Source: Octopus vulgaris
Taxonomy: Eukaryota
Length of the DNA: 64,000 nucleotides
Reading direction: 5' to 3'
Assembly (NCBI GenBank): GCA_951406725.2
Contig: OX597837.1
Coordinates: 3,658,001-3,722,000, forward strand
In this document: positions 40,982 through 42,574 of the stretch, in pieces
Numbering within the stretch: position 1 is the first letter of the stretch
How the letters are laid out: every line of letters begins with the position of its first letter
Program-made: the position numbers and the translations under genes
The notes under the pieces: model-generated
What the model was told of the DNA's origin: nothing
The model's database searches: none
What the model saw: only the letters and a program-made list of their open reading frames with translations

Positions 40982-41223
40982 GTCCCTTATGTTATATATA
41001 TATATATATATATAAAATTAAATTTAGGGTAAAAATTGATATTTATCAATTAGAACCAGTGGTCTAGCATATTAAAAAAGAATCCGAAGATTAAAATATT
41101 TATATATACCAATTAAGGACTGCACACGAAAAGTGGACAGTCAACATGCTAGATATAGACGTCAAATCGCCATTCTCCACAAAAAGTTGGCATTTAGTCC
41201 AGCAAATTACATTTTATATGGGA

Positions 41224-41288
41224 CCATACTGATGATGCTGCACTTTTCCTTGCGGAAAATAACAGCTGAAACTAAATTTAGTACATGG
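41224..41288 (+). ncRNA. Type-I hammerhead ribozyme, array copy 1
   Basis: CCATa-CTGATGA-t-GCTG..TTTTCC/GGAAAA..CAGC-t-GAAAC-TAAATTTA-GTA-cATGG. Confidence 0.85.
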
Positions 41289-41728
41289 GTAAATATTTAG
41301 TTCGTATATTTTTCACTTGTTTATTACTTTGGTTTTGTTGAGTTTGATCTGAGAACATAAACTTTTTGTGGAGAATGGCGATTTGACGTCTATATCTAGC
41401 ATGTTGACTGTCCACTTTTCGTGTGCAGTCCTTAATTGGTATATATAAATATTTTAATCTTCGGATTCTTTTTTAATATGCTAGACCACTGGTTCTAATT
41501 GATAAATATCAATTTTTACCCTAAATTTAATTTTATAAATATTTGTTCTCTAACCGATAAATTAACTGCTGCTAACTATTAGCTGCAGGCTAGTTTTCTC
41601 GGGTCTCATCGCGCCAAAAGTGGCGGCATTTGAAATATATATTTCTAATGTAATAGGCCGGACTCCATGCACGCGATATTTTGGTGTCGTGTTGGCATTT
41701 AGTCCAGCAAATTACATTTTATATGGGA

Positions 41729-41793
41729 CCATACTGATGATGCTGCACTTTTCCTTGCGGAAAATAACAGCTGAAACTAAATTTAGTACATGG
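41729..41793 (+). ncRNA. Type-I hammerhead ribozyme, array copy 2
   Basis: Identical to copy 1, +505 bp. Confidence 0.85.
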
Positions 41794-42233
41794 GTAAATA
41801 TTTATTTCGTATATTTTTCTCTTGTTTATTACTTTGGTTTTGTTGAGTTTGATCTGAGAACATAAACTTTTTGTGGAGAATGGCGATTTGACGTCTATAT
41901 CTAGCATGTTGACTGTCCACTTTTCGTGTGCAGTCCTTAATTGGTATATATAAATATTTTAATCTTCGGATTCTTTTTTAATATGCTAGACCACTGGTTC
42001 TAATTGATAAATATCAATTTTTACCCTAAATTTAATTTTATAAATATTTGTTCTCTAACCGATAAATTAACTGCTGCTAACTATTAGCTGCAGGCTAGTT
42101 TTCTCGGGTCTCATCGCGCCAAAAGTGGCGGCATTTGAAATATATATTTCTAATGTAATAGGCCGGACTCCATGCACGCGATATTTTGGTGTCGTGTTGG
42201 CATTTAGTCCAGCAAATTACATTTTATATGGGA

Positions 42234-42298
42234 CCATACTGATGATGCTGCACTTTTCCTTGCGGAAAATAACAGCTGAAACTAAATTTAGTACATGG
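42234..42298 (+). ncRNA. Type-I hammerhead ribozyme, array copy 3
   Basis: Identical to copy 1, +1010 bp. Confidence 0.85.
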
Positions 42299-42574
42299 GT
42301 AAATATTTATTTCGTATATTTTTCTCTTGTTTATTACTTTGGTTTTGTTGAGTTTGATCTGAGAACATAAACTTTTTGTGGAGAATGGCGATTTGACGTC
42401 TATATCTAGCATGTTGACTGTCCACTTTTCGTGTGCAGTCCTTAATTGGTATATATATATATATATATATATATATATATATATATATATATATATATAT
42501 ATATATATATATATATATATATATATATATGTATGTATGTATGTATGTATGTATGTATGTATGTATGTGTATAT

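Follow-up and report, generated by a model that had tools for sequence, protein, structure and literature searches.

The 505-bp tandem array in the window (the whole 64,000-nucleotide stretch of DNA that was analysed) is probably a single head-to-head insertion of a dispersed, non-coding retrozyme, likely copied in trans by a Penelope-like reverse transcriptase (RT) with a GIY-YIG endonuclease from a predicted self-cleaved circular RNA. The repeat represents a new non-LTR retrozyme family, for which a Penelope-like element is the likely means of mobilisation. Both non-LTR retrozymes as such and the proposal that they depend on Penelope-like elements have been published (PMC7229834; 10.64898/2026.07.22.740005); the second study sampled no mollusc. 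Our literature search, which covered titles and abstract openings, found no paper on the 505-bp family. Mobilisation of retrozymes by Penelope-like elements has so far been proposed from co-occurrence and homology of pseudo-LTRs (pLTRs). The 505-bp family adds evidence from insertion ends, with a rule of one short and one long end and a long tail.

Structure of the 505-bp array

Self-comparison confirmed the 505-bp period that a preliminary description of this DNA had proposed. It spans 41186 to about 42450 with two mismatches (41300 and 41315), in agreement with the roughly two differences between units given there. Period 505 yielded 830 matches of 1000, whereas adjacent periods yielded a background of 272-316. 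The array contains 2.5 units of 505 bp and three hammerhead motifs, and only two units are complete from cut to cut. The hammerhead cores begin at 41229, 41734 and 42239, with their GUA triplets ending at 41283, 41788 and 42293, where the three identical hammerheads had been placed. The 178-bp inverted copy at the 5' side and the (TA)n on both the left and right sides were likewise recovered. The earlier statement that the array holds no credible ORF also stands, with microsatellite-derived frames being the only ones of at least 100 aa that touch it. The parts of the array and two further family members in the window are as follows; the ends marked S and L are the short and long ends of the unit.

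15276-15526, + strand: older-subfamily copy in (TA)n, without hammerhead, whose short inverted arm has the S end and whose forward arm reaches the L end
37797-37888, + strand: 5'-truncated family fragment, 79% identity, without hammerhead, in (TA)n
40993-41013, no strand: (TA)n run at the left end, common to the adjoining 360-bp element
41011-41188, - strand: inverted 5'-truncated arm, 178 bp, unit positions 77-254, stops at the L end, unit position 251
41186-41188, no strand: head-to-head junction between the arms, overlap 3 nt
41186-42449, + strand: tandem arm, 2.5 units, stops at the S end, unit position 156
41224-41288, + strand: hammerhead motif 1, predicted cut after 41283, position 2.1 is A (41228)
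41284-41788, + strand: complete unit 1, cut to cut, unlike unit 2 at 41300 and 41315
41729-41793, + strand: hammerhead motif 2, predicted cut after 41788, A at 41733
41789-42293, + strand: complete unit 2, cut to cut
42234-42298, + strand: hammerhead motif 3, predicted cut after 42293, A at 42238
42450-42574, no strand: right-end (TA)n followed by a (TATG)n run, the first 8 bases of which also fit the unit

BLAST prolonged the inverted arm into the TA run. Complete unit 2 has a predicted circular fold with a z-score of about -4.7 against 25 shuffles. The relatives that had been noted near 15283-15525 and 37790-37865 are real, the first matching the 505-bp unit at 15316-15533 with 82% identity, but the hammerhead is absent from both. 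We take the short repeats that flank the array to resemble octopus SINEs.

The hammerhead motif and its predicted fold

The preliminary description regarded the ribozymes as canonical, a view that did not survive comparison with Rfam and with the type I consensus. The Rfam hammerhead search suggested there gave no match in the window at the gathering score, none in 40500-42600 at E ≤ 10, and none among 40 matches at E ≤ 5 from three other family loci; nor did the Rfam searches yield any other family of ribozymes. Apart from an Rfam match, a canonical type I hammerhead would have a 6-bp helix I and contacts between loops 1 and 2; here helix I has 4-5 bp. The motif instead combines a full catalytic core with a short helix I, a long interrupted helix II and a palindromic helix III, and corresponds to the minimal Penelope type as defined in PMC4209133. 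Hammerheads of this type cleave poorly in vitro (PMC4209133). Another trait of the minimal type, the G10.1-C11.1 pair with an extra base after A9, is not present in the subfamily of the array, in which helix II opens with U·U; in sister subfamilies, helix II starts with G-C or G·U accompanied by an extra U. The axolotl ribozyme HHR_Amex2 also has U·U at this position; its cleavage is weak in the monomer and improves in the dimer (PMC7229834).

All three motifs of the array have an A at position 2.1, facing C1.1, whereas 47 of 51 family motifs have G, as found with a search pattern that admitted only A or G at this position. The mismatch is private to the array copy and lies beside the cut site. 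In the predicted fold it costs about 2.6 kcal/mol relative to a sister copy, and the minimum-energy fold is the hammerhead in the sister copy but not in the array copy, where it has about -15 kcal/mol for the motif region. Because a private helix I mismatch is present in all three motifs, the array copy may be a poor producer, and it likely cleaves worse than its relatives. The predicted self-pairing of helix III extends over 12 bp with -10.8 kcal/mol, which is what dimeric action of the ribozyme would require.

For 25 distinct family motifs, 95.8% of 474 helix cells are paired, as compared with 30-47% in slid controls, and double-sided changes occur in 7 of 19 helix pairs. These sequence comparisons support conservation of the hammerhead fold through compensatory changes. 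The changes represent few events between subfamilies and the search pattern partly selected for helix I; the covariation thus supports the fold and does not prove activity.

Dispersal of the family and insertion ends

The genome-wide unit search that had been suggested for copy number returned 1447 candidates in the 2.8-Gb genome, with the array located on contig C24. The 40 candidates that were scored gave 183 matches on many contigs, and full-length copies among them are about 88-99% identical. Exact matches to the hammerhead pattern numbered 949, against one in a reversed control, and at least five subfamilies were distinguished, which bears out the earlier proposal that the array belongs to a family. 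Down to about 75% identity, the subfamilies keep the unit order and are non-coding. Complete units that were measured are 495-513 bp long, and loci of the youngest subfamily differ by 0.1-0.8%. A motif from a loose contig end led to two further non-coding relatives. Lone hammerheads on contigs C1 and C2, including a pair 3.7 kb apart, were followed as a lead to a partner and turned out to be another non-coding subfamily. Since the identical period occurs at unlinked loci, assembly duplication is ruled out as a general explanation. The repeat has the sequence properties of a retrozyme: its tandem unit measures a few hundred bp, two or more units in succession carry a type I hammerhead, it is dispersed in multiple copies, and it has neither coding capacity nor LTR structure.

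Contigs from a sequencing run that we guessed to be RNA include one of 167 nt that is identical to the youngest subfamily over the hammerhead and for 30 nt beyond the cut, one nucleotide fewer than we required of a bridging contig; such contigs cannot show RNA ends or circles. Contigs starting exactly at the cut are explained by a graph branch 30 nt downstream rather than by an RNA end. At 42238, contigs of this kind have G, not A, in an assembly type that drops rare variants. A splice-donor-like GTAA occurs 5 nt past the cut site in all subfamilies seen (41289-41353 in the window, and equivalents), followed by a pyrimidine-rich tract and, at a distance of about 55-80 nt, an AG. This stretch may be a vestigial pLTR intron; no splice joint at the donor-like site was found in the sequencing-run contigs that cover the unit.

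The arms of family insertions point outward and end at or near unit position 156 (S) or 251 (L). The two sites are about 95 nt apart, and the few TA bases that follow each of them in the unit match the target. We examined 40 insertions, 26 with two arms and 14 with a single arm. One two-armed insertion is a local duplicate and was left out, and S was paired with L in 23 of the 25 independent cases, L with L in none. The two exceptions have two near-S ends and one S plus an intermediate end, respectively. With the local duplicate counted, the pairing occurs in 24 of 26 (p = 5e-6 against 0.5). Single-armed insertions have the S end in 13 cases and the L end in one.

Most arm junctions join unrelated unit phases with an overlap of 0-3 nt, and in two the overlap is longer, at 18 and 24 nt. 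Several subfamilies repeatedly show arms as long as five units, long arms run back into the unit with a constant period, and every copy is 5'-truncated. Locus-private variants that are fixed across both arms were found 16 times, in six loci, which indicates that both arms come from one template lineage. Variants common to only some units of a locus were present at 16 sites, one of them in the array. This last variant, private to the array, occurs in only two of the three units that cover it; a single pass round a monomer circle is therefore insufficient by itself. Pooled divergence is 0.7% within arms and 0.6% to the nearest other locus. The variants restricted to subsets of units and the divergence within arms indicate that later conversion or a multimeric template must contribute.

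The insertions have the features of Penelope mobilisation, with an inverted 5'-truncated copy, one tailed end (about 95 nt) and a (TA)n target, which masks target-site duplications. Hallmarks described for Penelope are an inverted truncated copy, a tail of 30-40 bp at one end and a bias toward (TA)n (PMC8557442; PMC3846280). In vitro, RT starts at two internal sites, the tail being the interval between them, and cleavage and extension affect the two target strands alike (PMC11167929). From the retrozyme interpretation in the preliminary description, the non-coding hammerhead tandem family, its multimeric dispersal, the Penelope-type head-to-head structure, the fixed 3' ends and the (TA)n targets remain, whereas the canonical ribozyme does not.

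Proposed mobilisation, candidate partners and neighbouring repeats

A GIY-YIG search of the genome gave 6136 candidates, of which 150 were scored. One Penelope-like family has intact 781-aa ORFs with matches to RVT_1 and GIY-YIG, and its C-x4-C-x2-C finger precedes a C-terminal endonuclease, which is the Neptune/Nematis pattern (PMC8557442). Its copies differ by a median of 0.8% (10 copies); they too end in (TA)n, at two sites with a spacing of about 38 nt. This RT plus GIY-YIG family is a plausible helper of the 505-bp unit. These young Neptune/Nematis-type elements (L051-L066, e.g., G000:C16:20836744-20839089) also carry a frame upstream, at most 479 aa long, and what may be a hammerhead, read by eye, with a U3-A8 core change. 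In a second Penelope-like family (L067, L070, L105, L108 and L116), core position 4 of the pLTR hammerhead is C or U, and U flanks helix II on both sides. The supplement of PMC8557442 includes octopus Penelope families, which could bear on the identity of the partner.

Linkage of the unit to an RT/GIY-YIG ORF of a Penelope-like element, a point raised in the preliminary description, was looked for and not found in 70 GIY-YIG loci or 121 family loci. The 505-bp element itself lacks such an ORF. BLAST gave no match between the unit and the 70 loci (of the 6136 candidates), and alignment with three Penelope 3' regions was not significant (best 4/200 shuffles in one of nine comparisons). Since no DNA is shared with these loci and regions, a small sample, the unit is not the tail of any element seen. 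With tblastn, a Penelope ORF was detected near family members in one place only, in 121 family loci covering 439 kb with partial overlap. That locus, L200, was considered as an ORF-bearing parent and rejected, as it is a nest of unrelated elements, in which a degenerate Penelope copy with an end of its own precedes another hammerhead family; among 20 loci of this other family, 19 have no 505-family hammerhead at the junction. The segment after L lies upstream in 79 of 132 hammerhead contexts; the remainder were presumed to be truncated or inverted before it.

From the product structure we infer an order of cutting, ligation, circle formation and priming. A read-through RNA would be cut at the hammerheads, probably as a dimer formed via the palindromic helix III, and the cut monomer would be ligated into a circle. 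The Penelope-like endonuclease would nick both strands of a (TA)n tract, with one target strand priming at S (unit position 156) and the other at L (unit position 251) on the same RNA lineage. Each cDNA would run round the template for a variable length, the two cDNAs would be joined at their far ends, and later local conversion or duplication would partly homogenise the units. Published results speak against the cleavage step: hammerhead cleavage is not needed for the anole element in vitro (PMC11167929), and cleavage was absent in 8 of 9 Xenopus retrozyme dimers (10.64898/2026.07.22.740005).

These observations also enter into a different account, in which the element is non-autonomous and Penelope-dependent, but the template is a linear read-through multimer and no circle is involved. 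The hammerhead would have weak activity or a regulatory role, and template jumps together with unequal crossing over would maintain the arrays. We regard this account as rather unlikely, even though it would accommodate the 16 sites with variants common to subsets of units, the dominance of uncut RNA as substrate of the anole element (PMC11167929) and the poor in vitro cleavage of minimal Penelope hammerheads (PMC4209133). A linear template would presumably only shorten arrays unless they were regenerated, yet arms of up to five units recur and all copies are 5'-truncated. The hammerhead fold is moreover maintained through compensatory changes, and mussel and axolotl retrozymes yield circles (PMC7229834). 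It is improbable that the unit is a pLTR or tail end of an undetected autonomous Penelope-like element, with ordinary truncated copies. All structural hallmarks are indeed Penelope-like, only 150 of 6136 GIY-YIG candidates were scored and a fraction of the 949 hammerheads was read. Nevertheless, the only Penelope ORF detected in the 121 family loci is the degenerate copy with its own end, long arms re-enter the unit at a fixed period, and the upstream position of the post-L segment (79/132) is at odds with a tail end.

A different origin of the inverted arm has been proposed for rotifer Penelopes (PMC3846280), namely self-priming on an antisense template in place of two-site priming from both target strands. 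The two junctions with overlaps of 18 and 24 nt would suit such a process. However, most junctions unite unrelated phases with little overlap, and the S plus L pairing, together with the two start sites on both strands in vitro (PMC11167929), fits two priming events better, making self-priming quite improbable. A local satellite or assembly duplication with a chance hammerhead-like motif is least credible, and extremely so: we saw no long reads across the array and no Rfam match, but the period recurs at dozens of unlinked loci with varied lengths and phases, the units of the array differ at two sites, and the fold covaries.

Within the preferred reading of a retrozyme copied from a circle, a more specific version is possible, which we put forward tentatively. 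The family may display the Penelope reaction in pure form, in which a dimeric RT-endonuclease primes two strands at two fixed sites of a single circular RNA, using S before L and leaving one tailed end per inverted insertion. The element would be a passenger without a homologous autonomous parent, and several unrelated families of this kind would coexist in one genome. With no such parent and start sites about 95 nt apart, not 30-40, recognition would rest on RNA structure. If true, the insertion ends would give direct evidence that animal retrozymes use Penelope machinery on a circle. Small defined RNA templates with predicted start sites allow tests of inverted and tandem copying by Penelope RTs, a step called unresolved in the literature.

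The metazoan non-LTR retrozymes of coral, mussel and axolotl (PMC7229834; 10.64898/2026.07.22.740005) resemble the 505-bp family in their tandem non-coding units, type I hammerhead, GC content below 45% and coexisting Penelope-like elements. The 505-bp unit exceeds the reported circles of 170-400 nt but falls inside the consensus range of 51-972 bp; its hammerhead is minimal, not canonical as in those retrozymes, and its circles are predicted only. Judging from term counts, the main texts of both reports do not discuss inverted arms or tails of retrozyme insertions. Endonuclease-bearing (EN+) Penelope-like elements (Neptune/Nematis, Penelope/Poseidon, Naiad) and their pLTRs share the inverted 5'-truncated head-to-head copy, the single tail and (TA)n targets (PMC8557442; PMC3846280), as well as the minimal hammerhead with palindromic helix III and long helix II (PMC4209133). 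In contrast to these elements, the 505-bp element has no ORF, a fixed period instead of a partial tandem and a tail of about 95 nt versus 30-40 bp, and its unit has no DNA similarity to the Penelope 3' regions examined. Elements of Chlamys such as MRC1 are likewise non-autonomous, Penelope-dependent and multicopy head-to-tail, but they resemble their own autonomous families at the 3' end, in a clade without canonical hammerheads (PMC8557442). The 505-bp family, unlike these, has a hammerhead, and no matching autonomous end was found.

Adjacent to the array, a second family accounts for the palindrome at 40586-40993, which was inserted separately; the 360-bp unit of this family is unrelated to the 505-bp unit. 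Copies are 99-100% identical and also occur in head-to-head form, with ends about 45 nt apart. The hammerhead-like motif of the family, in which core position 4 is C, gave 1184 pattern matches against 0 in controls; its fold was derived from one sequence and is not the minimum-energy fold. The copy at 40586-40993 retains just the 3' half of the motif, and its left arm lacks 24 nt through a deletion. By these sequence features, the 360-bp repeat appears to be a second, retrozyme-like and very young family. A third repeat family that bears a hammerhead and ends in (TA)n was seen at L213-L231, e.g., G000:C1:7608428-7609100 (1118 candidates); at L200 and L212, its sequence joins a 505-family copy immediately ahead of the hammerhead.

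Other repeats in the window include a copy of the 5' part of U2 snRNA at 43845-43984 (- strand), which scores 68.6 bits in Rfam, ends in (TA)n and is probably a retroposed fragment. A 122-aa frame at 39489-39857 (- strand) resembles a fragment of a Tc1/mariner transposase, and we take frames at 46787-47607 to resemble a broken LINE reverse transcriptase. A 47-bp minisatellite at 20872-21171 has higher-order periods of 75 and 96 bp.
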